A stretch of DNA of 56,087 nt from a virus (taxonomy: Duplodnaviria; Caudoviricetes). The translations under genes were made by a program, and so were the position numbers. The notes under the pieces are model-generated. The model was not told where the DNA came from, searched no databases, and saw only the letters and a program-made list of their open reading frames with translations. Every line of letters starts with the position of its first letter. The stretch's first letter is position 1. The stretch is taken from IMG/VR virus record IMGVR_UViG_3300036859_001061, positions 1-56,087 of that record. One strand, written 5' to 3'. Positions 4,272 through 56,087 of the stretch are shown piece by piece.

Positions 4272-6185
4272 TCAGCGGATCAGCGCGCGTTCTTTGATTT
4301 CGCGCAGGGTGACAAAGAGGTCCTCGAGTGACCGGGACGCAAACTGGACGTCGGCCATCGGCTGCGGGCGGTTCGGCTCCGGGCGAATCGTCACGCTCTG
4401 TACCGTGACGGTGATCGAGAGGCCCCATTCGGCGACGGTGATCGTCAACGGACGGCGGGCGCGGAGCTTCGGGTCGCTCGACGTGCAGCTGCCGCTCGTG
4501 CGCGGGTCCTTCAGGAGCGCCAGCACCGCGGCGCCGCGTGCGCCGGCGCCCGCCAGGTTGAGCCGGCGATCCTGCACCGGGTGTTCCCGCGTCCCGTAGG
4601 TCGATTTGCTCGTCGCGTCCTCGGTGATGACCAGGATGTTGATCGCCTCGCCGACCTTGAGCGCCTGCGCGATCGCGCCGGCCCCACTCGCGGGCACGCC
4701 CGTCAGGTGCGGGATAGCCTTCACGGTCCCCGACCGCACGGTCGCCGTGAGGCTCCCGACCCCGGAGGCGGGGATCCCGGTCAACGTGCCGGACCCGCTC
4801 GAGGCCGATCGGCCCGTGTACGAGAACACCTGGCCGCCCGGCGCTTCCGCCCAGCCGGACGCCGGAAACTGCGACAGGTCCTCAACCTCGATCGCCGTCG
4901 CACCGGCCGCGACCGACGACGCGCCGTACCCCGCGGTATTGCTCGAGGGCGGCGCCGCGCCGACCGCCAGGGCGTTGATGTGCGCCGTGGCGGTCGCGAT
5001 CGCGATGTCGGTGTACTTCTTCAGCGTGCCGACCCCGCCGCCGGCGTCGGACATGTAGAGGCTCTTCAGGGTCACTTTCGGATCGGTTGGCACTGCGATG
5101 TTGAGGAAGAATTCATCTTCGGCGCCGCTGATGCTCACCGACAGGGTGTTCACGATGTTCGACTCACCGGCCGACGTCTGGTAGGTGAGCCCGACCAGGT
5201 ACGTCGCGTTGGGCGTCAGGGCCCCGCCCGTGCCCGTCGCCGAGAGGGTCGGGACCGGCGCGCTCAGGTAGCCCGTGGCGCTGCCCGCTTCGCTGCCCGC
5301 CGCGACGCCCGTGTAGGTGAGGATCTGCGCCTCGAGCTTCGCGGAGTTCGTGCCGCTCGTCGCGAACGCGGAGATGTCGTCGACGGGGATCGTCGTGCCG
5401 CCGACGGCGATCGGCGCGCGCACACTGGCCCCCAAGCCTTCGACCACGATCCGGTTCCGGACCCCTTCCGTGTCGCTGTCGTAGGTGAGCGACTGGGTGT
5501 GCGGATTGCTCGTCGTGATGGCTTCCGGTCCGACGCCGGTGGTCTCCGTGGTGTAGAGGTGCAGCTGCTTGTCGAAGTCCCAGTAGTCGTACCCGCCGAT
5601 CCGCTCGGCGAGCTGCTCGAAGGCCGCGGCGAGCGGGACCAGCGTGAACTGGATCTCATCGATCGTAGCCAGGCCGGTTTGGACGTAGGTCGTCGTCGTG
5701 AATCCGGTCGGCGCGTACGTCGACAGCAGGTCGAGCGCGATCGCCGTCGCGGTCTGGGTCGCGTAGCGTTTCGTGACCAGGATGCCCTGCAGCTGGTAGA
5801 GCCAGTCGAGGCACGTGCAGCGGTAGATGGTGCGTCCCTGATCCAGGCGCGTGAACTGCCGATTGACGCGCACGATTGTCCCGCGGAAGAGGCGGTTCGT
5901 GAGCGCGCCGGCGCCGAAGATCACTTCCTGCGCGGCCGCCGGCGTGAACCCGAAGAGGTCGATCGACAGCTGGCCAGGCTGGCCGCCGCGGGCGCGCTCG
6001 GTGACGCGCCACGTCTCCCGGTCGAAGTTGAAGTGACGGTTTGTGCCGTTGACGCTCAGGCAGAGATTGGGGCCGAAGTAGTTGGAGCGGGTAGCGCCGG
6101 CGCGCGGCGCGCGGTACAGGCCCGTGCCGCCCGCGCTGCGTGCGCGCGCATACATGAGCGCCGGCTGGCCGCCTGTGATCCCCAT
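4272..6185 (-). CDS. Tail tip/baseplate hub protein
   Basis: Follows tape measure gene (TGATG overlap); LFRGTI..CLDWL hub-like N-terminus; repeated internal beta modules (LTG[IV]PASG). Confidence 0.7.
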   Translation of the reverse strand: MGITGGQPALMYARARSAGGTGLYRAPRAGATRSNYFGPNLCLSVNGTNRHFNFDRETWRVTERARGGQPGQLSIDLFGFTPAAAQEVIFGAGALTNRLFRGTIVRVNRQFTRLDQGRTIYRCTCLDWLYQLQGILVTKRYATQTATAIALDLLSTYAPTGFTTTTYVQTGLATIDEIQFTLVPLAAAFEQLAERIGGYDYWDFDKQLHLYTTETTGVGPEAITTSNPHTQSLTYDSDTEGVRNRIVVEGLGASVRAPIAVGGTTIPVDDISAFATSGTNSAKLEAQILTYTGVAAGSEAGSATGYLSAPVPTLSATGTGGALTPNATYLVGLTYQTSAGESNIVNTLSVSISGAEDEFFLNIAVPTDPKVTLKSLYMSDAGGGVGTLKKYTDIAIATATAHINALAVGAAPPSSNTAGYGASSVAAGATAIEVEDLSQFPASGWAEAPGGQVFSYTGRSASSGSGTLTGIPASGVGSLTATVRSGTVKAIPHLTGVPASGAGAIAQALKVGEAINILVITEDATSKSTYGTREHPVQDRRLNLAGAGARGAAVLALLKDPRTSGSCTSSDPKLRARRPLTITVAEWGLSITVTVQSVTIRPEPNRPQPMADVQFASRSLEDLFVTLREIKERALIR

Positions 6186-8506: not shown

Positions 8507-8948
8507 AGCTTTCGGCGGCCACCTCCACCGCCTCAACGCCGAAGAGTTTCCGCGAGACCTGGATCTTCACGCGCTCGTCGAGCAGCACCTTCGTCCGGTC
8601 GGTGCACACGAGCGGCCGATCGTCCGCGGCGACGATGCCGCGCCAGGAGACAATCCCTTTCTGCATCAGCTCGTCGCTGACGGCCTGCTGGTCGACGACC
8701 TCGAAAAGCTGCCGGCCGCCGGCCGGGTTCTTCTCGAGGCGCGTGTGTTTCTTGATCACGGCGTTGTGGTCGGCGTCCGGGATCGGCTGCAGCAGGATGA
8801 TGACCGCTTCCGTGCCGTCGTCCTCGCGCATCTCCTCGCCGGTGTAGGGGTCGCGCACCACGAGCTTGACGAGCTCGGTGTTCGTTTCCCCGGTGGAGCG
8901 GACGCTATTCATCCGCAGCGCCCGCACGGTCTTCTTAGTCTCGGTCAT
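8499..8948 (-). CDS. Tail assembly chaperone (gpG-like)
   Basis: Between tail tube and tape measure genes; IVSWRGI motif. Confidence 0.7.
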   Translation of the reverse strand: MTETKKTVRALRMNSVRSTGETNTELVKLVVRDPYTGEEMREDDGTEAVIILLQPIPDADHNAVIKKHTRLEKNPAGGRQLFEVVDQQAVSDELMQKGIVSWRGIVAADDRPLVCTDRTKVLLDERVKIQVSRKLFGVEAVEVAAESFR

Positions 8949-9027
8949 CAGGTCCGGCCCTCCAGCCGGGAGGGAGTGTCTTTTTCCGTGCATAAAATGC
9001 GCAGAAACCGATACCCCCCGAGTCTGC

Positions 9028-10098
9028 CTACGCGAACGGGTTCACCGACGCGATCCCGGTGGTCGTCACCCGGATCGGCTTCGTGACGCCGGCCATCCCA
9101 GTCGGCGCCGCCGTCGTGTCGAGCGCCTCGAGCGCGATCTTTGGCTCGCCCTGCTGCACCGTCGGCAACGGCGCCGCGTACGACATCACCGCCAGGTTCG
9201 GGAGCTCGAACTTCAGCCCCCAGCTCGTCGTCGCGTCGATGAGCGGGCCGGTGAAGATCAGATCGCCCTTGTAGCGCGTCCCGTCCTTGTGCGCGGCGAA
9301 GAACGCCTTCGACGTCGCGTCGTAGCGGGCGAACGTCAGATCGAGCGTGATCTTGGGGAAGCCATTGTCGAGCGGCTGGATGATCGACGGCGAGCCGCCG
9401 ACGAACTTCACATCGATCGGCTGCTCGACGCGCAGCTTCATCGCCGTGAACTTCATGGCGTCTGACGACCCCAGGGCCCCGCCGCTCTGGGCGTTCAGCC
9501 GGATGACGCAGTCCTTGAAGAACCAGCGCCGGCCGAGCGTCGGGAAGGTCAGCGCGCTGATCTGCGTCGCCGTATTGATGGCCGAGTCGACCTTCTCCTG
9601 ATCCCCGGTGAAGAGCCAATCGACTTCCATCCGGCCCATCTCGCCGATTCGCATCTCGAAGCCGCTGAAGACCGCCCCCGGCACTTCGGCGACGTCCTGG
9701 ACCTTGTCCCGGACGATCGTGGCATAGAGCGTCGAGCGGGTCGTCGCCGGCTCGAACGTGTTGGTGTAGACAGTCGACGTGCCGATCTGCACGGGCGCGG
9801 TCCCGCCGGTCCCGAGCGCGAGGGCGAACAGAATGTTCTGCCACACGTCGTGGTAGTGCAGGAACATCGGGAGCTGGGTCTGCACCGCCTCGAGGTTGCT
9901 GACCTGGATGGCCCCGATGAAGTTGCGGGTCGCGACGTCTTCCTTCGCGATCTGCCGCTTGTTCTGAATATCGACGTCGTCGCGCAGGTAGTGCCCGTCG
10001 CCGGCGCCGACGGCCGTCGCGGTCGCCGACCCCAGGCTCCAGGACCCGGCGGTCGCGATATTGATCCCCACCTTCGTTTCGCGTGCGGTGACACCCAT
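9028..10098 (-). CDS. Major tail tube protein
   Basis: 356 aa, beta-rich, YTNTFEP motif; strong GGAG RBS; canonical position. Confidence 0.75.
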   Translation of the reverse strand: MGVTARETKVGINIATAGSWSLGSATATAVGAGDGHYLRDDVDIQNKRQIAKEDVATRNFIGAIQVSNLEAVQTQLPMFLHYHDVWQNILFALALGTGGTAPVQIGTSTVYTNTFEPATTRSTLYATIVRDKVQDVAEVPGAVFSGFEMRIGEMGRMEVDWLFTGDQEKVDSAINTATQISALTFPTLGRRWFFKDCVIRLNAQSGGALGSSDAMKFTAMKLRVEQPIDVKFVGGSPSIIQPLDNGFPKITLDLTFARYDATSKAFFAAHKDGTRYKGDLIFTGPLIDATTSWGLKFELPNLAVMSYAAPLPTVQQGEPKIALEALDTTAAPTGMAGVTKPIRVTTTGIASVNPFA

Positions 10099-28739: not shown

Positions 28740-28973
28740 TCAGTGCGCGCGGCGTTTCAGGGCCTGGTCGAGCAGCTGCCGGGCGAGTTTGCCGGGTGTG
28801 ACGCCGCGATGTTGCGCTTCCTGGATCAGCCGATCGTGCAGCTCGGCGTTCATCCGGATCGAGAGTTCGGACGGGTCGACGAGCTCCGGTGGGCGGCCGC
28901 GGCGGGGCTTGCCGGACGCGGGCTCACGACTCGGCCCCTTATGCACCTGGTGTGGAGGCTTGGGGTCCATCAT
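28740..28973 (-). CDS. Ribbon-helix-helix DNA-binding protein
   Basis: RRGRPP then LSIRMNAELHDRLIQEAQHRGVTPGKLARQLL. Confidence 0.7.
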   Translation of the reverse strand: MMDPKPPHQVHKGPSREPASGKPRRGRPPELVDPSELSIRMNAELHDRLIQEAQHRGVTPGKLARQLLDQALKRRAH

Positions 28974-30628
28974 CGGCGCCCCCCTCGGAGCTCCGGCGGC
29001 AACACGAACGCCGGATCCTGCAGCCGCTTGATCGCCTCGACGGCGTCGGGCCCGTGCTTGGCGACGAGCTGCTCGAGCGCGAGATACTCGTCGGCTTTCC
29101 GCTCGCGCGTCTGCTTGCGCGCTTCCGCCGCGGCGGCCTCCGGATCGAGCACGGGCGTCGGGCCATCGGTCGCGCGTATCGTCGCGACGACTTCCCCCTT
29201 ACCCTTCGCGAGCTTGTTGAAGGCGCCCGCCGCGGCGTCGATCTGGTCCATGAACTTGGCGTCCTTTTGGTAGGCGTGCGCCTCCCGCAAGAACCCTTCG
29301 TTCCAGCGCCCCCGCACGAGCTTCACGTTGCCAGCTTCGGCCTGCGCGGAGAGCGGCCCGGCACGCTCGACTTTCTCGCCCGTGACCTTGTCTGCGCGAA
29401 TGGTGTAGCCGGCCAGGTTGCTGATGGTGTTCTCGGCGCTTTCCTTGCCGCCGCTGCCAGGCTCTTGCTCGACCCACACGTTGACCCCGACGCCGTCGAA
29501 CTCGGCGGTCTGCCGGATGACGCGCTCGCGGTTGTGCGCGGACCACTGCCCGGTGATGACGTCTTCGAGGTAGAAGAGGCCGTCGACCTCGGCGATGAGC
29601 ACGCCGGACGTGCGCTTCCCTCCACCCTCGGTGCCGGCCTTGTCCCAGTAGCGCGTGCGCCGGGCGCGCTTGGGCGAGGCGGCGACGATCGAGAACCACG
29701 CGCGGTTGAACACCTTGCCGGCGGTCGCCTTCACGTTCCAGTTGCCCCCGAGCAGCCGCTCGCGCTCGACGTAGGGCAGGGCCAGCAGGTTCGCCCGATA
29801 GCTGGGGTCTTTCTTCTGGAGGATCTTGTTGTCGGCGAGCGTGCCCGGGATGAACGTGAGCGACTTCGGCTGCAGGTCCGGGATGCTGGCGAAGCGGCGG
29901 TGCAACTGCTCGGCGCTGTCGGCCCAATGGAGCTCCTCGTTGAGCCGGACGAACCAGCGTATCTTGCCCGCGCGCGCCGGAATCGGCAGGCCGGTCTCCT
30001 GGTCAATCCACCAGGCAATCAGGCGATTGAGCCAGCCGCCGGTCGGGTCGTCGTCGGGGACCGGGTTGCACGTGGCGAGGATATAGGGCTTCACCCCGCA
30101 GACTGAGCGGTTGCGGGAGAGCATGTACCAGAACTGAATCTCCTCGAACGACTCGAGCTGGTCGAACCCGATACACGCGATCTGCGACCCGTCCCAGCTG
30201 AACCGGTCCTTCGCGTGCTGCATGTGCGCGAGCTTCACGGACATGCCCTGAGGAAACTCCCAGCGCAGATCGGTGAGGTTCGAGTCGGCGCCGAAGAGCG
30301 GGTAGATCTTCTCGCTCTCGTCCCAGATGCCGCCCTCGGATTTGAGCTGGGTCGTCTCGCGGCGGAAGAGGACTGCGCCGAAGCCTGGATTGTCCTTGTG
30401 CTTCAGCGGGTTGATCAGGAGACCGAAGGTCTTCCCCACGCCGGCGGCGCCGCCCGCGATGGTGATGTCGGCGCGGCTGTTGACGAACTGCTCCTGCGGG
30501 CCAGGCTGTGGGGTGATGCCGACGTCCTCGACGTCGAGCGGCGGCGGGTCGGGTTGGAAGGCCTCGAGCAGGCGATCGCACGCCTGGTCCCACGCGGTCG
30601 GCTGGCGGAGGGCTACACTGAGGCTCAC
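28970..30628 (-). CDS. terL: Terminase large subunit
   Basis: PQPGPQ, Walker A GGAAGVGKT, IGFDQL, ATCNP, nuclease RYWDKA, EQEPGSGGK, DQIDA. Confidence 0.95.
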   Translation of the reverse strand: MSLSVALRQPTAWDQACDRLLEAFQPDPPPLDVEDVGITPQPGPQEQFVNSRADITIAGGAAGVGKTFGLLINPLKHKDNPGFGAVLFRRETTQLKSEGGIWDESEKIYPLFGADSNLTDLRWEFPQGMSVKLAHMQHAKDRFSWDGSQIACIGFDQLESFEEIQFWYMLSRNRSVCGVKPYILATCNPVPDDDPTGGWLNRLIAWWIDQETGLPIPARAGKIRWFVRLNEELHWADSAEQLHRRFASIPDLQPKSLTFIPGTLADNKILQKKDPSYRANLLALPYVERERLLGGNWNVKATAGKVFNRAWFSIVAASPKRARRTRYWDKAGTEGGGKRTSGVLIAEVDGLFYLEDVITGQWSAHNRERVIRQTAEFDGVGVNVWVEQEPGSGGKESAENTISNLAGYTIRADKVTGEKVERAGPLSAQAEAGNVKLVRGRWNEGFLREAHAYQKDAKFMDQIDAAAGAFNKLAKGKGEVVATIRATDGPTPVLDPEAAAAEARKQTRERKADEYLALEQLVAKHGPDAVEAIKRLQDPAFVLPPELRGGRR

Positions 30629-30822: not shown

Positions 30823-31421
30823 GCCTCCGCCTCGTTCGGCTTCAACAGCTTCCGGAGGTCCGCGAAGATGTTGGCCAGCGCGGTCCGGTCCCTGACGTGG
30901 CGCTTGACGCTGTCGCTCACGTAGGCGACGAGCATCATCACCCGGTCGACGCTCACCATCGCGTGCATGTCCTTCATCCGCTTCGACTCCGTGTCCACCA
31001 GCTTCCGGCGCTGCTCGATTAACACGTCGAGCTGTGGCCCCAGGCTGTCGATGGTCGCCTGCGAGCCTTTCTCCTTCGCCTTCCCGAGCCGCGCGAGCAG
31101 TTCCCCAATGCGCGCGTCCGTGAACGCGACCTCCGAGTCGAGCTTGAGCAGGTCCGGGTCCGCGAGCGCCCGCTCGTAGTGCGCGCTGAGGCCCTTGAGC
31201 TCCTTCAGCAGCTTCGAATACCGGCCGTGGCGGAAGTTGTGGTGCGCCGGCCCGATGGCGGCGAATCCGTTGTGCATGCGGCAGCGCCCGTTCGGGCCGA
31301 GGCCTTTCGAGGTTTTGCAGATGCCGCCCCGTTTGTTCCGCCCGCCACACGTCCGGACGGCGGGCAGGACTTCGGCATGGGCTGCCGTTCCATGCATGGG
31401 CTTTCCCACGGCCTTCGTCAC
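30819..31421 (-). CDS. Putative terminase small subunit (HGGxSTG-like N-terminus)
   Basis: CGGRNKRGGIC..GRCRMHNG..NFRHGRYS plus helical C-terminus, upstream of terL. Confidence 0.7.
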   Translation of the reverse strand: MTKAVGKPMHGTAAHAEVLPAVRTCGGRNKRGGICKTSKGLGPNGRCRMHNGFAAIGPAHHNFRHGRYSKLLKELKGLSAHYERALADPDLLKLDSEVAFTDARIGELLARLGKAKEKGSQATIDSLGPQLDVLIEQRRKLVDTESKRMKDMHAMVSVDRVMMLVAYVSDSVKRHVRDRTALANIFADLRKLLKPNEAEA

Positions 31422-31711
31422 GCGTTGATCCCGATGACGCGATTGGCGCTGGGAATGGGCGGCGACTTCGATAGCCGCATCCGCTCGGCGTGCGCCCTGA
31501 AGTCCGCGTCGGGCTTCGTCCACCAGGAGTCACCGCGTTGCGCGGGCGCGGCTAATTGCCGCAGGGCAGGATTGTAGGGGCGGCCGGCCTGGCGCCGGCT
31601 GAAGCCTTCCTCGGCCTCGGTCAGCGGCTCGGGACGATCGACGACGAAGCGGCCGTGTGTGGCTTCGAGGTCGTCGAGCAGCTCGAGATCGCCGGCGGGG
31701 CCCACGCGCAT
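31418..31711 (-). CDS. Hypothetical protein
   Basis: 97-aa coupled ORF. Confidence 0.45.
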   Translation of the reverse strand: MRVGPAGDLELLDDLEATHGRFVVDRPEPLTEAEEGFSRRQAGRPYNPALRQLAAPAQRGDSWWTKPDADFRAHAERMRLSKSPPIPSANRVIGINA

Positions 31712-31712
31712 G

Positions 31713-32234
31713 TCATCGGCCTCCGCCTCGGGCTCGCGCGTCGTGGTCGAGGCGACGTCGGGCGTCGGGCAGAGACTCGCCTCGGCGGGGCCGTGCGTCC
31801 TCCTCCGAGTCGGCGGCCGGCGGCTGCGCCGCCGCGCGCCCTGAGCCCTTCGTCACCGGCAGGCTGTAGCGTCGGCTATTGGTGACCCCCGTCGCCTGCA
31901 CGCGCCCCGCGCGCACCAGCCGTCCGATCGTGTAGCGCAGCTGCTTCTTCGTGATGCCGCAGGCATCGGCCAGAGACCCAGCGCTCAGAGGGATGGCGTT
32001 CGCGGCGAGCTCACGGCAAATGCGATAGTTGAGGTTGTGCCCGACCACGTGGTCGGCGGGAACGCGCTCGGTTGCCGGCATCATCGCCGACGGCTCGCCG
32101 AGCGGTCCCTCTCCTTGGGTGAGCAGGCGGAGCAGTCCGCATTTCGTGTCGTGCGCGCGCTGCATTTCTGTCTGCAGCGCGTCGAGATGCGCATCGAGCT
32201 CGGCCACCGCGGCGCGGATGACGTGCGTGTCCAT
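31713..32234 (-). CDS. Winged-helix DNA-binding protein; contains partial protospacer
   Basis: LSAGSLADACGITKKQLRYTIGRLVRAGRVQATG..RRYSL. Confidence 0.65.
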   Translation of the reverse strand: MDTHVIRAAVAELDAHLDALQTEMQRAHDTKCGLLRLLTQGEGPLGEPSAMMPATERVPADHVVGHNLNYRICRELAANAIPLSAGSLADACGITKKQLRYTIGRLVRAGRVQATGVTNSRRYSLPVTKGSGRAAAQPPAADSEEDARPRRGESLPDARRRLDHDARARGGGR

Positions 32235-32430
32235 TTTGTTGGTCTCGGGAACGGGACTGAGTGTGGAAGTGTGCCGGTGACCTGTAAAGGCTGAGATCTG
32301 TCCATCGGCTCGAACGGCTCGATCGGCTACGTGTGTCTCTTCCTCCGTGCGGTCTCCCGCCCGTGGCGAGATGAGCCTTTCCTTGGCGTTTTTGCGGATC
32401 CGCGTTTCAAGAGGGCGACGACGAGGTCCA

Positions 32431-32664
32431 TCAGTTGGTCCCTGTCCGCAAGGTCGGTATCCGGCTCCACTTGATCCGCTTTAGGAAATCGAGGAAGTCC
32501 TCCTCATGGACCCGGTACGAGGCGCGCTTCCCCGAGCCCGCGACGTTCTCCGCCTTGAGCCGCCCGTCCCGAATCTCCACCCAGACGTAATCGGTGCTCA
32601 CCCCCATGATGTCGGCGCACTCACGCGTCGTCAGCGGCCGACGCGGCGGCGGTGTGTCGCTCAC
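32431..32664 (-). CDS. Excisionase-like HTH protein
   Basis: LTTRECADIMGVSTDYVWVEIRDGRLKA..YRV. Confidence 0.75.
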   Translation of the reverse strand: MSDTPPPRRPLTTRECADIMGVSTDYVWVEIRDGRLKAENVAGSGKRASYRVHEEDFLDFLKRIKWSRIPTLRTGTN

Positions 32665-32888
32665 CCGCGCTCTCCCGCCTCGGCCGCCGCCGAGGCCTGC
32701 GCCGTCCGCACCTCGCGCGCCGCGCGCCGCACCCGCGACCGGACCCGGAGGCGCGCGCCGGCGAGCGCCGCGCACTCCAGCGCCCGCCCGCTGTAGTGGG
32801 CGAGGAGCCGACGCTGGGTCTCGCGCTCGGCGCGCAGCACCGGGGTGAAGTCGATCGTCGGGATGTCGATCATGGGGTGGCCTCGCAT
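32661..32888 (-). CDS. Hypothetical protein
   Basis: Coupled small ORF. Confidence 0.4.
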   Translation of the reverse strand: MRGHPMIDIPTIDFTPVLRAERETQRRLLAHYSGRALECAALAGARLRVRSRVRRAAREVRTAQASAAAEAGERG

Positions 32889-32889
32889 C

Positions 32890-33099
32890 TCAGTTCGGAA
32901 TCACAATCGAGGACGCGTGAGCCAGGAGATGGCGCGCCATCTCGCGGGCCTCGGCGTCGCTCAGCACGATCCAGTCGACGGGCCGCTGGAAGCGGAGCAC
33001 GACGTGGCCGTCGCGGCGGCCGACGGCGAACGCCATGCCGCCGTCGACTTTGCGGGTCGGGGGTTTCAACAGCCAGGCGTCTTTTGGGTCGGTGGGCAT
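32890..33099 (-). CDS. Hypothetical protein
   Basis: AAAGGAG RBS; 69 aa; first gene after the array. Confidence 0.6.
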   Translation of the reverse strand: MPTDPKDAWLLKPPTRKVDGGMAFAVGRRDGHVVLRFQRPVDWIVLSDAEAREMARHLLAHASSIVIPN

Positions 33100-33143
33100 A
33101 CTCAGTCTCCCTTTCTGTCTTCGTCAGCCGGCCCAGATGACAG

Positions 33144-33611
33144 CCCGCAGTGACCGAATCGGCGATCAGGCACTTCGAGGCTGGCAAGCGCTCGGTTGCC
33201 GGCGTCATCGCCGGCCCCGCAGTGATCACGCGTCGAATTGATCACTTCGGGGTCATGGTCGTGTCGCTTGCAATCCACATCGTGTGCCCGCAGTGATCTC
33301 GCGTCGAATTGATCACTTCGGGGCGCGGTAGTAGACGACCCCTTTCGCAACCTTCGTCACCCCGCAGTGATCACGCGTCGAATTGATCACTTCGGGGTCA
33401 TCGCGTAGGACACTTCCGTGTCGAACTGCTGCCCGCAGTGATCACGCGTCGAATTGATCACTTCGGGGCGACGTCGCGGCCCCCCTGCAAACCGCCGCCT
33501 ACGACCCGCAGTGATCACGCGTCGAATTGATCACTTCGGGTTCTTCTCCGCGGAGGACGCGCATTGGAAAAGCTGCCCGCAGTGATCACGCGTCGAATTG
33601 ATCACTTCGGG
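33144..33611 (-). CRISPR. CRISPR array: six 36-bp repeats, one degenerate trailer repeat, six spacers of 35-38 bp
   Basis: Plus-strand repeat CCCGCAGTGATCACGCGTCGAATTGATCACTTCGGG at 33216, 33287 (1 mismatch), 33361, 33432, 33505, 33576; degenerate copy 33144-33180; unique spacers; minus orientation inferred from degenerate end and upstream gene. Confidence 0.95.
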
Positions 33612-33729
33612 GGCGGTGCCCACAAGTGGGCGGATCCCCGACACTTACCCCGCGTCCCGCGAGCGCCTCCGGGACGTACGGTCCCGGCGCCCACCCGCGC
33701 TTGAGCCTGGCGGTGGCTCACAACTCGCA

Positions 33730-34983
33730 TCATGCTGATACCTCTCGACTTCCCTCCACCGCGAGCGATCCCGGCGGATCTGGCGGGATCTGACCGCTCG
33801 CGTACACCCACGCCAACCCGTGATTTTCGCAGGTCGTCTGCAGCCGCATCCGGAGCGCCTGCCAGGGGAACGGCGCACAGAACGTGTCCGTGCTGTCGTC
33901 GTACGTGACGGCCTCCACGCGCTCGCGCTGCGCGAGACGCACGACGTCCGCCGCGATCTGCGCGAGCCAGGTCCTGAGCTGGTCACGGCTGCGATCGGCC
34001 ATGCGCGCGAGCTTGACCCGCATCCCGGCCGCCTCCGAGGCGCGGAAGCGCCGCGAGACGCCCAGGTCCGCCGCCAGTCGCTCGCGGCGGACCGTGTAGC
34101 CACGGATGGCGCGACGGACCTGATCGCCAGAGATCGTCCCCACGATCCCGCGACCAGCGACCCGCAACACCAGCAGATCCGAGGCGCCAGTCTCCACCAC
34201 CAATCGGCAGCCGGGCGTGACGGACGCGGCCGTCTCGCGAGGGAACCACCCCACGAGCTTCAGCATCGGCTTGACGTCCCGATCCCCGCTCCGATGGTCG
34301 CCCGGCCGTCGCGTGACCCGCAGCAGCGCGCCCGCCCCGATCGCCCAGGACGACGTCTGGAGATGCCGCGCACGGGCCCGCTGGCCGTGGCCCACATAGA
34401 CCCGCAGCCGCCACCAGCGATCCCCCAGCCGCACCCGCACCACCGTGATCCCGTCGGCCGTCGTCGGCTCCAGCGCGAGGCCTTGATCATGGAGCGGCGC
34501 CGGCACCGGATACCGATACGTCGCCAGACTGCGCGCCCGCGTCCAGATCAGCTCGTACCGCTGCGCGCGATAGGTCTGCTCGACCTGCCGGATCAGCGAG
34601 GTCACATTGATCGGCGCCAGCGCGGGAAACAGGGCGCGGATCTCTGGGTAGAGATACACCTTCGGCATCGGTCCCAGCTTCCCATCCGTGGGGCCACGCC
34701 GCACGTCGCGCGCGTAGAGCTCCGTCGCGATCCAGTTGGCACACCGCGTCGTCTCCGCCCACGCGTCACGCAGCGCCGCGCCGAACTCCGGCCACGTCGC
34801 ATCCAGCGGGCGGGTGATCGCGAGCGTGACGGCGCGGCGTACATACTGCCGATCGAGACAATCACCGCACGTCGGATCAGGCGTGCGCTTCCACCCGATC
34901 GGGAGCCGCGTCTCGGCCTTCACCGCCTGGGTCCGTCCGCATCCACACAAGACCGTGCGTGCCAGGTCCTCGGCGTTACCCAC
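33730..34983 (-). CDS. Compact TnpB/Cas12-like CRISPR-associated protein, RuvC apparently inactive (about 417 aa)
   Basis: Ends 118 bp from the array; C-half follows TnpB order: RuvC-I-like RLVVETG, basic bridge helix, AADVVRLAQRERVEAVTYDD (RuvC-II-like), FPWQALRMRLQTTCENHGL; no RuvC-III or zinc finger after it; N-terminal CxC..CxxC; GTG start overlaps upstream stop. Confidence 0.7.
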   Translation of the reverse strand: MGNAEDLARTVLCGCGRTQAVKAETRLPIGWKRTPDPTCGDCLDRQYVRRAVTLAITRPLDATWPEFGAALRDAWAETTRCANWIATELYARDVRRGPTDGKLGPMPKVYLYPEIRALFPALAPINVTSLIRQVEQTYRAQRYELIWTRARSLATYRYPVPAPLHDQGLALEPTTADGITVVRVRLGDRWWRLRVYVGHGQRARARHLQTSSWAIGAGALLRVTRRPGDHRSGDRDVKPMLKLVGWFPRETAASVTPGCRLVVETGASDLLVLRVAGRGIVGTISGDQVRRAIRGYTVRRERLAADLGVSRRFRASEAAGMRVKLARMADRSRDQLRTWLAQIAADVVRLAQRERVEAVTYDDSTDTFCAPFPWQALRMRLQTTCENHGLAWVYASGQIPPDPPGSLAVEGSREVSA

Positions 34984-35188
34984 GGCCCCTCGCTTCCCAG
35001 GCCTTGTAGACGCGCTCGTACTCCGGACCTGGCGCCTGCCCGTCGAGCGCATAGACCCGGATGAACGTCCAGAGCGCGATCCGGTGCGGAATGTGCCAGG
35101 CGATGAACATCGGAAACCCCTCATCGCGGAACCACTGCCACCAGGCGCGGGGGCCCCACCCGCGCGTCCATAGCCTCCACATGGTCAC
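34976..35188 (-). CDS. Small Trp-rich hypothetical protein
   Basis: 70 aa, coupled to both neighbours. Confidence 0.55.
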   Translation of the reverse strand: MTMWRLWTRGWGPRAWWQWFRDEGFPMFIAWHIPHRIALWTFIRVYALDGQAPGPEYERVYKAWEARGRG

Positions 35189-35484
35189 TCCCCCTTTTTT
35201 AAAGACTCGCCGCTCGGTCTGGTCAACACCCCCGCCGCGCCGCGCTTGAAGTCCTCAGCCGCCGGGCAGCTTTTCCAATGCGCGTCCTCCGCGGAGAAGA
35301 ATGCGATAACCCGGTTCGTCTCGGGGTCCAGCGCCGACTTCCGCGGCACGGCACCGGCGTTCATCGGCATCTTCTTCCCGCGCCGGGTCTCGTACCAGTC
35401 GATCGCCGCCCCGCACCCCCGGCAGCGGCCGCCGACCGAGCGCGAGTCCTCGTAGAGTCGAATGAGCGTCCCGTCCCAACTCAC
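35185..35484 (-). CDS. Small zinc-binding phage protein; contains perfect protospacer
   Basis: CRGCGAAIDW..GKKMPMN..HWKSCP. Confidence 0.7.
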   Translation of the reverse strand: MSWDGTLIRLYEDSRSVGGRCRGCGAAIDWYETRRGKKMPMNAGAVPRKSALDPETNRVIAFFSAEDAHWKSCPAAEDFKRGAAGVLTRPSGESLKKGE

Positions 35485-35720
35485 GATTGCCCTCCTGGTG
35501 TCTCGTCGCGCCGCAGGTACTGGTAGACCGTCGCCGGCGCCGCGAGGAGCCCCAGCTTGCCGCCGAGCATTCGCCCGATCGCGCGTTTGCCGAGCAGGGC
35601 CTGCGAGACGAGCGCCGCGCTGCAGCCCACTTGCCGCGCGAAGGCCTCCGCGGACCCGGCGGCGTCGATCGCCCGCACGAGCAGCTCGCGGGCGTCGGCC
35701 TCCGTGAGCCAGGTGGTCAT
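35481..35720 (-). CDS. Cro-like HTH protein
   Basis: AGSAEAFARQVGCSAALVSQALLGKR. Confidence 0.7.
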   Translation of the reverse strand: MTTWLTEADARELLVRAIDAAGSAEAFARQVGCSAALVSQALLGKRAIGRMLGGKLGLLAAPATVYQYLRRDETPGGQS

Positions 35721-37312
35721 CGCTTCTTCCCGGCCTTCGCCTTCGCCGCGGGCTTCGACTCCGCGGCGGCCGGCGCCGGCGGCGCGTGCGTCGCGAGGAT
35801 CGCGGCCAGGCCGATGTCGAGCCCGAATCGCTTCAGCCGGCCAGGCACCTCACGCCGGCCCCAGTACTCGTTGTCGACGCCGCGCAGCGCCTGGCCCAGC
35901 GCCAGGACGCGGAGGGTTTCGTCGGCGTTCTTCGGCGGCCGGTTCAGTAGCCGCTGACTGTCCGCCTTCGCGTCGCGGGCCTCGGCGAGCGCCAGCTTGA
36001 TCAGCGTCGGCACCGGGGCGGCCTTCACCTGCGCGAGGATGGCGGCCTCGATCTCGGGGACCGCCTTCTTCCACTGGCGGCGCTCCTCGGCGTCCTGCTT
36101 CTCCTTCGCTTTCAGCTCCGCCTCCGTACGCGCGACCGCATTCGCCTCGTTGCGCGCGGCCTGCTTCCCCTTGCCGGACGCGCGGAGATTGGCGCTGTGC
36201 TCCTTCTGCTTGACGACCGCGGCGAAGTGGACGCGACAGCGATCGCGCGCGACGCAAACCCGCAGCGTGTCGCCCTGGCCGGGGCCCGCGACGACGACGC
36301 CGAGCACGGAGTGTTCGCAGGTCTTCGACTTCGCCTGCCCGTCGGCGCGCTCCCACGACTGCGACCCGTAGGTGCGTTCCTCGGCGCGCGCGTCGTCGGC
36401 GACGCGGTATTCGTGCGTGATCGCGATGACCTTCCGGCCGCGGCCCGGCTGCCCCGCGGCGGCGTCGACCTGGGCGGCCGTGGCCTCGAAGACGAGCGGC
36501 TGCGCCGTCGCCGCGTGCGCGACGTCGAACCGGACATGTCGCTGAATCCAGCCGTCGAACTCCCGGATCGAGACCGGTTTGACGTCGTCGTACTTGCCCG
36601 CTCTCTTTTCCTCGTCGGCGGTGAGAAAGTTGCGGCTGTGATCGGATGCCCACAGTCCGCCGACCGCGCCGACGCGCCCCACGCTCGAGTCTGGATCGAT
36701 CGCCCGCTCCTGGTCTGCCGGCTTCAGCCGCGACAGCAAGATCGCGTGCCCCACCGTGAACCGGTTCGCCTCCAGCAGCCGCTTCGCCTCCGGAATCAGG
36801 TCGTTCAGCTTCAGGCGGTCCCACACGTAGCCGACTGACATCCCGATCCGGGTCGCGATGGTCTCGGCGCTGTGCTTCGTCGGATTGCTGTCGATCAGGC
36901 GCCGGTAGCCGACGGCCTCTTCGAGCGGCGTCAGATCCTTGCGGTGGATGTTCTCCTCGAGCTGCGTCTCGAGGACCTGGGCGTCGGTGTAGGCACGGAC
37001 GATCGCCGGCACCTGGACCAGGCCCGCGAGCTTCGACGCGCGGTACCGGCATTCGCCGGCGACGATCTCGAAGAGCTTCGGGTGCTGCGCGGCCTTCTCG
37101 GGGTGCCGCCCGATCGCGCGGAGGCCGTCGAGCGGCCGCACGACGATCGGCTGGATGAGCCCCTTCTCCCGGATGCTGCCGGCGAGCTCGGCGAGGTACG
37201 CGTCGTCGAAGTGTGTGCGCGGGTTCGTCTTCGACGGGACGATGACCGCGGTCGGAAGGTGCTGGAAGGGCGCCTCGGTCTCCGCCGGCGGCGCCGCGGC
37301 TGCTGTCGTCAT
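35717..37312 (-). CDS. ParB/Spo0J-family protein
   Basis: NPRTHFD, LAGSIREKGLIQPIVVRP, IVAGECRYRA, ENIHRKDLTPLEEA, HTH. Confidence 0.9.
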   Translation of the reverse strand: MTTAAAAPPAETEAPFQHLPTAVIVPSKTNPRTHFDDAYLAELAGSIREKGLIQPIVVRPLDGLRAIGRHPEKAAQHPKLFEIVAGECRYRASKLAGLVQVPAIVRAYTDAQVLETQLEENIHRKDLTPLEEAVGYRRLIDSNPTKHSAETIATRIGMSVGYVWDRLKLNDLIPEAKRLLEANRFTVGHAILLSRLKPADQERAIDPDSSVGRVGAVGGLWASDHSRNFLTADEEKRAGKYDDVKPVSIREFDGWIQRHVRFDVAHAATAQPLVFEATAAQVDAAAGQPGRGRKVIAITHEYRVADDARAEERTYGSQSWERADGQAKSKTCEHSVLGVVVAGPGQGDTLRVCVARDRCRVHFAAVVKQKEHSANLRASGKGKQAARNEANAVARTEAELKAKEKQDAEERRQWKKAVPEIEAAILAQVKAAPVPTLIKLALAEARDAKADSQRLLNRPPKNADETLRVLALGQALRGVDNEYWGRREVPGRLKRFGLDIGLAAILATHAPPAPAAAESKPAAKAKAGKKR

Positions 37313-51481: not shown

Positions 51482-52681
51482 ATGCCGCGGAAGGGCAAGC
51501 GCCGGCGGATCGCGAAGAGCGTCTATGCGGACGGGTCCGGCTGGTCGGCCGTCGCGCGTGCCGGCGACCTCGTGCGGGAACAGCGCTATGAGCCAGGCAC
51601 GTCCATGAAAACGATCCGGAGCTGGCAGCGCGATACCGAGCGCGAGCTCCGGAAGCTCCTCGGCACGCCGACCGGCGAGCGGCGCCTGACGCTGACCCAG
51701 GATATCGAGACCTACCTCACGGAAAAGACGATGGCGTCGATCGCCGATCGCGAGCGGGACCTGCGCGCGTGGATTCCCTGGTTCGGGCATCGCCGGCGCC
51801 ACACGCTGCGGACGCGCGAGCTGGACGCGCAGCTCCGGCGCTGGCGCGTGCTGGACAGGCTCTCGGCCTCGTCGGTGAATCATCGCCGCGATGCACTGTC
51901 GGATCTCTTCACCGTCCTCGATGGCCCGGAGGCCACGAACCCGGTGAAGGGCTGCATCTGGTGTGCCCGGGCGAAGCCGATCCCGCAAGCGATCGACCGG
52001 GCGCGGATCCAGCGCGTCCTCGAGGCGATGGATCCGGACCGAAAGACACGCTGGCGTCTCAGCCTTATGCACTGGACGGGGATGCGGCCGTCGCAGATGG
52101 GACGGCTCGCGGGGCCCGAGGACTTCCACATTGGCACCCGCGCGTTCGAACTCGAGATCCATGGCGCGCCGCGGCGCGTGCCGGCGGTCCTGGTGCCGTC
52201 GGGCAAGGGCGGCGACCCGGTCATGTTCCCGCTCACCGCGGAGGGCGAAGCGGTCGCGCGTGCGTTTCTCCGGACCGATGCCTTTTGGCGGCCGCCCGCG
52301 CGGCAGCCCGGCGCGCCACCAAAGACGCCGCGCGTGACCTGGTCGTGCCCGAGCGCCTACAAACGCATCGTGGCGGCGGCGACGAAGATCGGCGAGCGGC
52401 CGTTCACGGTCTACACGATCAAGCACTCCTTCGCCACGGCGCTCCGCCGCACCGGCACGGACCTGGCCGACATCCAGGACATGCTCGGGCACGCCGACAT
52501 CGCGAGCACGAGGATTTACGCGCCGGCGGTCAACGCGAAGCACGTCGAGGCGCTCGACCGGTTGCGGCGCGACGACGCCCGCAGGTATGATCACCCAGGG
52601 GCCACGAAACCAACGTCGTCTCCCCAGGCCGCGCCGGTTTCCGTGGCACCCGAGCGTGGCACCAAAGATGATGCCGCGTAA
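51482..52681 (+). CDS. int: Tyrosine recombinase (phage integrase)
   Basis: TGMRPSQ, GKGG, YTIKHSFAT, IQDMLGHAD, TRIYA. Confidence 0.92.
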   Translation: MPRKGKRRRIAKSVYADGSGWSAVARAGDLVREQRYEPGTSMKTIRSWQRDTERELRKLLGTPTGERRLTLTQDIETYLTEKTMASIADRERDLRAWIPWFGHRRRHTLRTRELDAQLRRWRVLDRLSASSVNHRRDALSDLFTVLDGPEATNPVKGCIWCARAKPIPQAIDRARIQRVLEAMDPDRKTRWRLSLMHWTGMRPSQMGRLAGPEDFHIGTRAFELEIHGAPRRVPAVLVPSGKGGDPVMFPLTAEGEAVARAFLRTDAFWRPPARQPGAPPKTPRVTWSCPSAYKRIVAAATKIGERPFTVYTIKHSFATALRRTGTDLADIQDMLGHADIASTRIYAPAVNAKHVEALDRLRRDDARRYDHPGATKPTSSPQAAPVSVAPERGTKDDAA

Positions 52682-53865: not shown

Positions 53866-55350
53866 ATGCTCAGGATGGACCAGGTACATGTCATTCGCCA
53901 CCAGGTGTTGGTGGAGGGCCGGTCACAGCGGCAGGTGGCCAAAGCCTTCGGGATGTCGCGGCTGACGGTGCGGAAGTACGTCGGCGAGGCGGCGCCGCGG
54001 CCGAAGGAAACGGGGCCGCGGGCACGGCCGGTCTGGGACAAGGTCGCGGGACGGGTCGAGGCGGTGCTCACCGCGTCGGCGCAGTGGACGGGCGGCAAGC
54101 AGCGGCTGACGGCCACACGGTTGCACGCGCTGCTGGTGGCCGAGGGGCACACCGTCGGCGTGACCGTCGTCAAAGACGCGCTCGCGGAATGGAAGCGGCA
54201 GCGGCGCGAGGTCTTCGTGCCGCTCACGTATCGCCCGGGCGATCTGGCGGAGGTCGATTTCTTCGAGGTGCTCGTCGACGTCGACGGCGTCCGTCGGAAG
54301 GCGTGGCTCTTCCTGATGCGCCTGATGTACTCCGGTCGCGACTTCGCGTGGATCTACGCGCGGCAGGATCAGATCAGTTTTCTCGACGGCCACGTCCGCG
54401 CCTTTGCGCACTTCGACGGCGTGCCGGCGCGTGTCGCCTACGACAATCTGCGTGCCGCGGTCGTGCGGATCCTGGTCGGCGGCGCGCGGACGTTGACGCC
54501 GCGATTCGCGGCGCTCGCATCGCACTACCTGGTCGAAGCGTGCTTCTGTCGGCCCGGCGAGGGCCATGATAAGGGCGGCGTCGAGGCCCGCGGCAAAGCG
54601 ATCCGCCAGCAAGCACTCGTGCCCATTCCGAGCGGGCCGACGCTCGCGGGGATCAATGCGGCACTGCTGGCGCAGATGGATGCGCGGCTCGACACCACGC
54701 GCGATGCCGCCGGGCAGACCATCGCGGCGCGCTTCGCCGAGGAGCAGCAGCAGTTTCGACTCGCGCCGACACCGTTTGCGCCGGAGTCGACGACGCTGGC
54801 CACCGTGACACCGCGCGCGTTAGTGCGGCTCGAGGGCGCGGTGTACTCGGTGTGGACGCGCTGGGCCGGCCTCGACCTGGTGGTTCGCATCGGGGCCAGC
54901 ACGGTGACGATCGTCGGCCGCGACGGCACGCACGTGCAGCACCCGCGGAAGCGCTTCGGCGAGCGCTCGATTGACTATCGGCATTACCTGACGGAGCTCG
55001 CGCGCAAGCCGCAGGCGGTGCGGCAGGTGCTCCCCGATCTCGTGCGCGATCTCGGCGCCCCGTTTCCGGCGATCTGGGATCAGCTCCACATCGCGTATGG
55101 GCCGCGCGAAGCCGCGCGGCTCTTCGCCAAAGTCCTCGGCCAGCTCGAAACTCAGGGCGCCACGGTCCTCGTGCCCGCGCTGATCGCGGCACTCGCGACA
55201 GGGACGCCACTGTTGCTCGCGCTCACGCCGGCGCGGCGCTCCCTCGATCGCCTCGCGCCGGACGCCGTGCCCGCGCCGCTCCGCGCGATCGACGTCGGCA
55301 GTGGCTGTGCTGCCGACTATGACGCGTGGCTCGGCGAGGTGGCGGGATGA
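53866..55350 (+). CDS. istA: IS21 transposase IstA
   Basis: N-terminal HTH, AEVDF, YDNL, KGGVE (DDE). Confidence 0.93.
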   Translation: MLRMDQVHVIRHQVLVEGRSQRQVAKAFGMSRLTVRKYVGEAAPRPKETGPRARPVWDKVAGRVEAVLTASAQWTGGKQRLTATRLHALLVAEGHTVGVTVVKDALAEWKRQRREVFVPLTYRPGDLAEVDFFEVLVDVDGVRRKAWLFLMRLMYSGRDFAWIYARQDQISFLDGHVRAFAHFDGVPARVAYDNLRAAVVRILVGGARTLTPRFAALASHYLVEACFCRPGEGHDKGGVEARGKAIRQQALVPIPSGPTLAGINAALLAQMDARLDTTRDAAGQTIAARFAEEQQQFRLAPTPFAPESTTLATVTPRALVRLEGAVYSVWTRWAGLDLVVRIGASTVTIVGRDGTHVQHPRKRFGERSIDYRHYLTELARKPQAVRQVLPDLVRDLGAPFPAIWDQLHIAYGPREAARLFAKVLGQLETQGATVLVPALIAALATGTPLLLALTPARRSLDRLAPDAVPAPLRAIDVGSGCAADYDAWLGEVAG

Positions 55351-55960
55351 GCGCGGCCCTGATTCGCGATCTGGTCGTCGCACAGACGCGTGGCCTCAAG
55401 CTCCCCGGCATCGCACGCACGTTTGAAGGGCTCGCCCGGCCAGCGCGCGATGCCCACTGGCCGCACGAAGACTATCTGCACGAGGTCCTGAGTGCCGAGC
55501 AAGCCTCGCGGCATGAGTCCGTCATTCGGCAGCGGCTCCACGAAGCCCGCTTCCCCGAGGTGCAGACGCTCGACACTTTTGATTTCACCGCGGCGGAGGG
55601 CGTGAGCGCGACCCCGATCCACACGCTGGCCCGTGGCGCATGGGTCACCGCACCGGAGAATCTGATTTTCGCGGGCCCGATCGGGACCGGTAAGACGCAT
55701 CTGGCGATCGCGCTCGGCGTGGAAGCGACGAAGCAGAAACGACGCGTGCTCTTCACCCGCGCGGCCGATCTGGTGCGGCAGCTGATCGAAGCGCGCGACG
55801 CCAGAGAGCTCACGCGCCTCCAGCAGCGGCTCCTGCGCGTCGACGTCCTGATCGTCGACGAGCTGGGCTTCGTGCCGTTCGATCGCACGGGCGGCGAGCT
55901 GCTCTTCAATCTGCTCACCGATCGCGATGAGCGCCGCGCCATCGTCGTGACGACGAATCG
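55347..55960 (+). pseudogene. istB: IS21 helper ATPase IstB, 3' end replaced
   Basis: My translation from the ATG at 55347: ARFP..TLDTFDF, GPIGTGKTHL, LIVDELGFVPF, VTTN, then unrelated sequence. Confidence 0.8.
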
Positions 55961-56087
55961 CTTATGCAGTGCACTGCATAATCGATTTAATGCGGAGTCG
56001 CGTGTTATGCGGGGCCTCCTTCAAGGAGACCCCGCCTCGGCGTTACTTTTGGGAGGTTGTACTCCGCATAACGGAGCGAGCGGCCAA
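55961..56087. mobile_element. End of a further element inserted in istB (RIT-like?)
   Basis: Perfect palindrome TTATGCAGTGCACTGCATAA at 55962-55981 and further TTATGCGG/CCGCATAA motifs. Confidence 0.45.

Follow-up and report, generated by a model that had tools for sequence, protein, structure and literature searches.

The virus record IMGVR_UViG_3300036859_001061 of IMG/VR (Duplodnaviria; Caudoviricetes), whose full 56,087 bases make up the window analysed here, carries a CRISPR array, the last spacer of which, S0, resembles a site inside a winged-helix gene of the same phage. On balance, we read S0 as an authentic, old spacer: it has diverged from the sequence it came from and is by now mostly inactive at the resident site. 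Its origin would be this part of the winged-helix gene, as carried by the phage's own lineage or by a very close relative, and spacer and gene would then have diverged by five substitutions in a fast-evolving protein linker. What is left in the array would be a fossil or escaped guide and not a tuned one. The array itself appears to be part of a phage-borne, RNA-guided DNA-binding system built on a nuclease-dead Cas12f-like protein, derived from type V-F. The elements that bear directly on S0 are as follows.

Positions 32057-32091, minus strand: resident site resembling S0 (30/35), nucleotides 144-178 and codons 48-60 of the winged-helix gene.
Positions 31713-32234, minus strand: winged-helix gene holding the S0-like site (Pfam HTH_20, E 2.3e-8).
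Positions 33144-33612, minus strand: CRISPR array of six 37-nucleotide repeats (0-1 mismatches) and one degenerate repeat, with six spacers, S5 first and S0 last.
Positions 33181-33215, minus strand: spacer S0, last spacer at the trailer end; its minus-strand reading is the 3' part of the CRISPR RNA (crRNA).
Positions 33144-33180, minus strand: terminal repeat, degenerate (22/37 consensus positions kept), its two ends conserved.
Positions 33216-33252, minus strand: perfect repeat preceding S0 in the transcript (0 mismatches), which folds into the repeat hairpin and would give the 5' handle.

S0 and the resident site lie on the same strand and are identical at 30 of 35 positions, with a 16-nucleotide exact core, which reproduces the match reported in a preliminary description of this DNA. 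An independent repeat search recovered the same pair as 35 nucleotides at 89%, its register off by 2 nucleotides. The best matches of shuffled S0 copies averaged 22.6 with a maximum of 27, none of 1000 copies reaching 30; when real 35-mers from the window were compared with the remaining window, 2 of 1000 reached 30. The other spacers of the array find best window matches of 21-26 over their 34-37 nucleotides. The likeness is restricted to the spacer plus 2 nucleotides, and the adjoining 20 nucleotides on the two sides have 5/20 and 6/20 identities. A likeness that ends with the repeat borders fits a spacer-protospacer relation and does not fit a local duplication, and segmental duplication was rejected as its source on this ground. 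Judged by these comparisons, we take the similarity to be true spacer-protospacer homology. The opposing view would deny any spacer-target relation and see two GC-rich sequences that are alike by accident, or what is left of a local duplication that has nothing to do with CRISPR function. The genome is indeed rich in guanine plus cytosine (68% G+C genome-wide and 65-72% along the record), and GC-rich near-repeats are plentiful in it, but the shuffles, the lower scores of the other spacers and a likeness that starts and stops at repeat borders, which a duplication would ignore, make this view very improbable.

The peptide on the reverse strand of S0 is PAMTPATERLP and residues 49-59 of the gene product are SAMMPATERVP, again as first described. 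The five differences between spacer and site change the amino acid in three cases and one codon synonymously, and thus do not reveal which side has drifted. In the winged-helix protein, the site falls in a hypervariable linker rich in Pro and Ala; the other parts are a helix at the N-terminus and a winged helix-turn-helix (HTH) domain of the HTH_20 family. By the searches made, few proteins resemble it: among 5.8 billion proteins, a word-based search matched it only to itself, and a full HMMER search gave 12 distant homologues, the best at 45% identity. When six of the homologues were aligned, the S0 site fell in the Pro/Ala-rich, indel-rich linker, and no spacer-like peptide was present in the target stretch of any of the six, the linker being unalignable. 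The location of the target in a hypervariable, indel-rich linker fits drift on the gene side.

S0 is a regular member of the array, with a perfect repeat on one side, the degenerate repeat on the other, and a length of 35 nucleotides that lies inside the 34-37-nucleotide range of the array's spacers. The degenerate repeat is identical to the consensus at the first 10 of 10 positions and at 9 of the last 10. It is its place at the trailer end, beside a repeat that keeps 22 of 37 consensus positions, that speaks for S0 as an old spacer, and from trailer position and degenerate neighbour together it is presumably the oldest of the array. L013, the nearest array-bearing relative, likewise has a degenerate repeat at the end of its array. 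L013 also has an extra scaffold and array 3.4 kilobases downstream (5351-5881 and 8743-9128) without a second effector gene, and one spacer is common to both arrays.

A source for S0 outside the phage did not emerge from the databases. The 26-nucleotide S0 core pattern is absent from IMG/VR viral contigs and from contigs of the JGI metagenomes; BLASTN of the array against GenBank phages gave a 27-nucleotide match to part of S0 in the tape-measure gene of a Microbacterium phage (92.6%, E 0.6), which looks chance-level, and BLASTN against plasmids gave nothing on S0. No better non-self match thus came from any of these four collections, in scans that need exact or near-exact matches and from which records near the window may be left out. 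Over spacer and site, the contigs of two soil sequencing runs (X1 and X2) do not differ from the window and show the resident allele only, at a contig level where rare variants are dropped; a third run, X3, yielded short weak pieces only, including 52 nucleotides over 32053-32104 with 6 differences and 4 gaps. Since self-derived spacers are common in the family and the site evolves fast, an origin of S0 in the phage's own lineage seems at least as likely as one in a foreign relative. The preliminary description had offered a choice between an old spacer from a related phage's homologue and a tuned regulatory guide; the old spacer fits best, a different phage as its source found no support in these searches, and the tuned guide is disfavoured.

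The guide can be oriented, and its effector classified, from the two elements that precede the array.

Positions 33730-34983, minus strand: gene of the Cas12f-like effector, 417 amino acids from the GTG at 34983 (database form 397 amino acids).
Positions 33613-33729, minus strand: region of a conserved, structured scaffold RNA (tracr-like), lying between the array's first repeat and the effector gene and aligned over 20 loci.

In its relatives the effector gene is followed by ~130-150 nucleotides of conserved non-coding sequence and then by an array or by a single repeat-guide unit. Of 11 viral loci, 9 have repeats after the effector gene, in seven cases as a regular array and in two as an irregular one; in the remaining two the contig stops at the effector gene or at most 129 nucleotides after it. 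Many chromosomal loci, mostly in metagenome-assembled genomes (MAGs) of Acidobacteriota, have the scaffold, a single repeat and a guide. The scaffold alignment, drawn from 20 loci, contains compensatory changes in 16 of 17 predicted pairs, and a GUCGGGG element of the scaffold pairs with the 5' end of the repeat through a helix that is among the covarying pairs. The locus would therefore possess, as a predicted and covarying scaffold, the kind of structured partner RNA that Cas12f employs. The order of gene, scaffold and array, together with the covariation, fixes the direction of transcription as that of the gene, on the minus strand. Transcription in this direction places S5 first and S0 last, turns the repeat at 33216-33252 into the 5' handle of the S0 crRNA, and makes that crRNA sense to the winged-helix mRNA, so that it would pair with the plus (template) strand. 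Transcription of the array on the plus strand was rejected because of the family-wide order and the conserved 3' ends of the repeats; position 2 of the guide would be mismatched anyway. Two loci, L008 (11290-12520) and L010 (11300-12650), have no regular array and instead carry dozens of copies of the repeat's last ~12 nucleotides, 10-30 nucleotides apart, in an irregular field downstream of the effector gene.

The effector has no family match in Pfam or PHROG, and none of its 45 homologues, each of ~400 amino acids, has a recorded Pfam domain. A closer relative is represented by L012, an effector fragment with 76% identity. A structure model built from 35 of the 45 homologues (mean predicted local distance difference test score 88.6) has as its best Foldseek match AsCas12f (8j12_A; E 4.2e-19, template modelling score 0.62), with further matches to other Cas12f proteins and to a natural nuclease-dead Cas12f (dCas12f; 9n9c, E 2.3e-14), and then to Cas12k, TnpB and Cas12m. 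The family profile also finds SpCas12f1 (9i8y_A) by sequence with an E value of 6.2e-9, and identity of the effector to solved Cas12f proteins is 12-16%. Structure model and profile thus agree on a Cas12f fold with detectable sequence homology. In profile alignments to SpCas12f1, OsCas12f and AsCas12f, the Asp of the RuvC-I GxDxG motif aligns to a family-variable column (A, T, Q, E, S, I, R, H, V or G) that precedes a near-invariant Thr, and the RuvC-II Glu aligns to the variable first residue of a YxD motif; the phage's own effector does have Glu and Asp at the RuvC-I and RuvC-II positions, which makes its loss of cutting a prediction. The Cas12f alignment finishes at about residue 377-380 of 422-500. 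Proteins of the family end ~25 residues past the next strand, and Cas12f extends 40-120 residues further, through a stretch that we take to hold the zinc finger (TNB) and the third catalytic Asp (RuvC-III). Neither an intact RuvC triad nor a TNB zinc finger is seen in the effector family, and the combination of unconserved catalytic columns with an absent C-terminal part leads us to read the family as nuclease-dead. The effector is accordingly predicted to be a naturally nuclease-dead, RNA-guided DNA binder, a prediction with which the earlier preference for DNA over RNA as the target of the array agrees.

On such an effector, S0 would make a poor guide for the resident site. Counted from the repeat, the mismatches fall at guide positions 2, 12, 29, 31 and 34, and the 16-nucleotide perfect core occupies positions 13-28, on the distal side; if the guide is read in the opposite direction, position 2 is still mismatched. 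In the study of natural dCas12f, characterised dCas12f proteins use guides of 14-16 nucleotides in which the seed proximal to the target-adjacent motif (TAM) matters most, and the target search of that study demanded six perfect seed positions (PMC13472631). Under this rule, which is borrowed from the dCas12f homologues, the S0 site does not have the perfect seed of a type V target, being mismatched at positions 2 and 12. Treated as a 16-nucleotide guide, S0 pairs at 14/16 on the resident site, a score equalled at three unrelated sites of the phage and by 25% of shuffled guides. The first 18 nucleotides of the guide form a 7-base-pair G-C hairpin, the whole 35-nucleotide S0 folds at -15.7 kcal/mol (z -2.6), and both seed-side differences between S0 and the gene convert G-U pairs of the guide fold to G-C pairs. 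The 5' flank is AGCC at the S0 site and CGGG at the S5 target, which belongs to the only perfect pair for this orthologue; the base adjoining the site is C for S0 and G for the perfect S5 target. From the seed rules of Cas12f and dCas12f we infer weak binding, and by this analysis the S0 guide is unlikely to bind the resident site efficiently. Nor would mismatches be necessary to avoid cutting, given an effector predicted to be dead and the perfect self-guides of its relatives.

Several observations weigh against S0 as a drifted and largely inert spacer. If the effective guide has at least 20 nucleotides, the resident site (18/20) is unique in the phage, and none of 200 shuffles reaches 18/20. 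The flanks of the five perfect pairs, which belong to different orthologues, are without a common TAM motif (CGGG, GACG, ACCG, AGAC and GTGC). In work with dCas12a, pairing to the template strand blocks elongation best; S0 would have this orientation close to the start of the packaging operon, and the same orientation is found in 3 of 5 perfect guides of relatives. The repeat before S0 is perfect, so that the S0 crRNA should still be made, and an array that retains a useless unit needs explaining. Array position is also the only ground on which S0 is called the oldest spacer, and the five differences, having no bias to synonymous sites, give no indication of the direction of drift.

S5 and the relatives of the effector offer the following matches to the carrier itself or to a sibling.

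Positions 33542-33575, minus strand: spacer S5, the first spacer, adjoining the scaffold, with a perfect self-match.
Positions 35267-35300, plus strand: S5 target, inside a 99-amino-acid zinc-ribbon-like gene (35185-35484, minus strand), ~285 nucleotides upstream of the effector start.
L009, 1492-1533 and 10192-10233: perfect self-match of the first spacer, on the ribosome-binding site (RBS)/ATG of a capsid-like gene.
L106, 11277-11313 and 3573-3609: perfect self-match of the first spacer.
L004, 2472-2509 and 5245-5282: perfect self-match of the fifth spacer, 40 nucleotides into a methyltransferase-like gene.
L011 8227-8270 against L009 9547-9590: sibling match of the first spacer, 45/45.

S5 is a perfect reverse-complement match to 35267-35300 and pairs with the coding strand of its target gene; the identity reaches 4 nucleotides into the repeat end and 1 nucleotide beyond (39/39). 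The site at 32057-32091 and that at 35267-35300 therefore bracket the CRISPR locus, and relative to the mRNA they are approached on opposite strands, both as the preliminary description had noticed; the S0 crRNA is sense to its target mRNA and S5 pairs with the coding strand of its own. The L011 contig stops short of the homologous place, and its match to L009 could equally be a self match. With the window included, 5 of 6 clear matches are perfect, and four of these five perfect matches involve the first spacer. In the whole records of five relatives, 2 of 23 spacer-like units have a self match of at least 80% identity, and both are perfect. The partial match is thus not conserved, with no imperfect self-match among the 23 units, and S0 is the sole decayed self-match seen in the family. 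The distribution suggests that the first unit of the array, joined to the scaffold, acts as a natural single guide against genes of its carrier. Spacers S1-S4 have no match in the 56-kilobase record, and short-guide tests with 16 or 20 nucleotides were not above shuffles; lacking self-matches in a record that is only 77% complete, they indicate that the array is not purely self-derived.

The cassette does not travel with its neighbours: tblastn of 12 neighbouring window proteins against the fetched effector-family loci matched none (0/12), which implies movement of the effector cassette between unrelated phages. Some features of the family's guides may be recorded here. The alternative first spacers of L009 and L011 measure 42 and 44 nucleotides, compared with 36 in the remaining spacers; they have identical initial six bases, and CG precedes both targets. 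Two chromosomal single-guide loci from different samples, L030 (5340-5385) and L059 (3437-3480), have guides that agree over the first 15 nucleotides and then diverge, which fits an effective guide of ~15-16 nucleotides in the family. In the two soil runs that contain the phage, contigs of the public assemblies break at 33244, 33583 and 35263-35292, that is, at the array and the S5 target, because the repeated 34-nucleotide sequence splits the assembly graph.

The genomic setting is that of a temperate phage. IMG/VR classes the record as a provirus, with a completeness of 77% by CheckV estimate, and the minus strand carries almost every gene of the window. Upstream on this strand lie an integrase and a CII-like regulator, from which we conclude that the phage is temperate, as well as ParB-like, replication and recombination genes. 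The array and effector cassette occupies the boundary between the early (replication) module and the packaging module. A gap of 196 nucleotides is followed by the winged-helix gene as the first gene, with the S0 site 144-178 nucleotides into it, and then on the minus strand by two small genes, the terminase large subunit and the portal gene, so that the HTH_20 gene does stand upstream of the packaging genes, where it had first been placed.

Positions 28970-30628, minus strand: terminase large subunit (Pfam Terminase_6N/6C; phrog_979, E 3.6e-136), marking the packaging module downstream of the winged-helix gene.

The non-coding gap itself, 32235-32430 (196 nucleotides), is the widest locally and is a candidate place for a late promoter; a sigma-70 promoter scan detected no promoter in it, and a scan of 31400-35800 for sigma-70 promoters and terminators gave no useful result. 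An open reading frame at 34976-35188, between the S5-targeted gene and the effector gene, encodes 70 amino acids, is tryptophan-rich and has high third-position G+C; its stop overlaps the GTG start of the effector, and a family search with it was without match. At the right end of the record (53866-56087), beyond the integrase (51482-52681), lies an IS21-like pair, of which the transposase matches phrog_1157 (E 6.9e-61) and the IstB/DnaC-like ATPase is cut off by the record end. Cas1 and Cas2 (PF01867 and PF09827) were unmatched in the record, which is 77% complete, in searches to which control genomes respond; the adaptation genes of an adaptive CRISPR-Cas locus were thus not found in this record.

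Two functional explanations compete with that of a drifted spacer. The first holds that S0 perfectly targets co-circulating relatives and would silence the late operon of a superinfecting relative, with the resident allele immune via its seed mismatches. There is one cross-phage perfect match in the family, between the first spacer of L011 and L009 (45/45, although it could also be a self match), S1-S4 are unmatched in the 77% complete record, which makes the array not purely self-derived, and virus-borne arrays were reportedly found by Medvedeva et al. in 2019 to be aimed at related viruses. We nevertheless consider this explanation rather unlikely: a sequence carrying the S0 core was not found in IMG/VR or in JGI metagenome contigs, GenBank phages offered only the 27-nucleotide, 92.6% match with E 0.6 and plasmids nothing on S0, the two soil runs that contain the phage show the resident allele only (in contigs, which drop rare variants), and the nearest homologue of the target protein, at 45% identity, is unalignable in the linker.

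The other explanation is that S0 is a tuned guide, whose crRNA would lead the dead effector to bind the site weakly and act as a leaky template-strand roadblock at the entry of the packaging (late) operon, complementing S5, which targets the gene just upstream of the effector cassette. The circumstances are suitable: the effector is predicted to bind DNA and not to cut it, the phage is temperate and keeps the cassette between its replication and packaging genes, the site lies 144-178 nucleotides into the first gene after a 196-nucleotide gap and would be paired on the template strand, perfect guides of relatives reach the starts of late genes, such as the RBS/ATG of the capsid-like gene in L009, and the 18/20 and 30/35 matches are unique in the genome. 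What makes it unlikely in our estimation is the guide itself. Its seed is mismatched at position 2 and again at 12, its 5' end is sequestered in a hairpin, and at 16 nucleotides it scores the resident site no better than chance sites; a dead nuclease gives no reason to detune a guide, all other self-guides of the family are perfect, and the partial match has no counterpart among the 23 units of the relatives. A bolder form of this idea would make the whole array the phage's programmable controller of expression, with S5 regulating its own cassette and S0 throttling entry to the packaging operon by deliberately incomplete pairing to the template strand. We think this quite improbable; if true, the array would be an RNA-guided element of the lysis-lysogeny decision, rewritable by spacer turnover.

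That nuclease-dead relatives of Cas12f and TnpB serve in nature as RNA-guided transcription factors is a recent insight, and the phage effector has some of its closest known parallels among such proteins. The report on natural dCas12f (Hoffmann et al., Nature 2026, PMC13472631) mentions a separate cluster of such proteins beside CRISPR arrays, whose guides may repress efflux genes. Natural dCas12f, like the phage effector, has a Cas12f fold that is truncated at the C-terminus, with loss of part of the RuvC site, and a guide RNA that has a scaffold and ends, on the 3' side, in the guide; its RNA-guided DNA binding serves gene regulation, which we count, as a prediction for the phage effector, among the shared features (PMC13472631). 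The phage system differs in its carrier, a temperate phage (its relatives occur in other phages and in MAGs of Acidobacteriota), and in having a multi-spacer array, a separate conserved scaffold and spacers that match the phage's own genes. It also has no sigma-E/HTH partner among the 18 neighbouring proteins scanned, none of which matched a sigma factor; the operonic rpoE with HTH partner that marks dCas12f-sigmaE is thus not seen, although HTH genes exist nearby. With type V-F Cas12f (Cas14) it shares a size of ~400 amino acids, an N-terminal zinc finger, the WED/REC/RuvC-core topology, an array-adjacent structured RNA that pairs with the repeat, and a crRNA composed of repeat then spacer. 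It departs from type V-F in its unconserved catalytic RuvC residues, its missing TNB/RuvC-III part, the lack of Cas1/Cas2 in the record and its tolerance of perfect self-targets.

Partial pairing of a guide to a gene of the same element is familiar from the CreA/CreT and CreR guides that work with Cascade and from the tracr-L/scaRNA of Cas9, in which it keeps the seed, prevents cutting by an active nuclease and is directed at promoters. S0 resembles CreA/scaRNA guides in being a spacer-like unit next to a degenerate repeat and in its incomplete complementarity to a gene on the element that carries it. It differs from them in its broken seed, in an effector predicted to be dead and in a site inside a coding region, so that the intact seed, truncated pairing and promoter site typical of a CreA- or scaRNA-like guide are not found together in S0. 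A CreTA-like module was rejected on the same grounds, namely the broken seed, the coding-region site and the dead effector, and an RNA anti-CRISPR decoy because the array has its own effector and scaffold. Virus-borne mini-CRISPR arrays, reportedly weapons in conflicts among related viruses (Medvedeva et al. 2019), likewise lack adaptation genes and have spacers resembling genes of the same virus group. Such arrays depend on a host effector and match other viruses, in contrast to the array described here, which has its own effector and clear matches to itself.

TldRs, which are nuclease-dead repressors resembling TnpB, use one fixed omega-RNA guide, and the flagellin gene that they regulate is that of the host. 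Like TldRs, some of which are prophage-encoded, the phage effector is a mobile-element-borne, nuclease-dead protein of the RuvC family with a 3' guide, TldR being a programmable transcription factor according to the TldR reports; these also describe the derivation of TldRs from TnpB nucleases and the regulation of flagellin expression by phage-encoded TldRs (bioRxiv 10.1101/2023.11.30.569447 and 10.1101/2025.07.22.666180). Unlike TldR, the phage effector is served by a CRISPR array with several spacers and with matches to the phage itself. Perfect matches of spacers to own genes, in this phage and in several unrelated ones, suggest that CRISPR arrays serve phages as a means of controlling themselves or their siblings, and a literature search, which did not extend to supplementary files, found no publication on phage-borne dCas12f arrays with self-matching spacers. 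Within this system it is at S0 alone that the past of such a guide can be followed, the guide having been kept in the array after its pairing decayed, and its site is a natural test of the effector's tolerance of mismatches; should the site prove to be bound after all, phage late genes would offer a new principle of regulation, in which partial pairing grades the control. The main interest of the locus nonetheless lies more in the system than in S0, as it would extend the regulators represented by dCas12f and TldR to arrays of temperate phages that match the genes of their own carriers.

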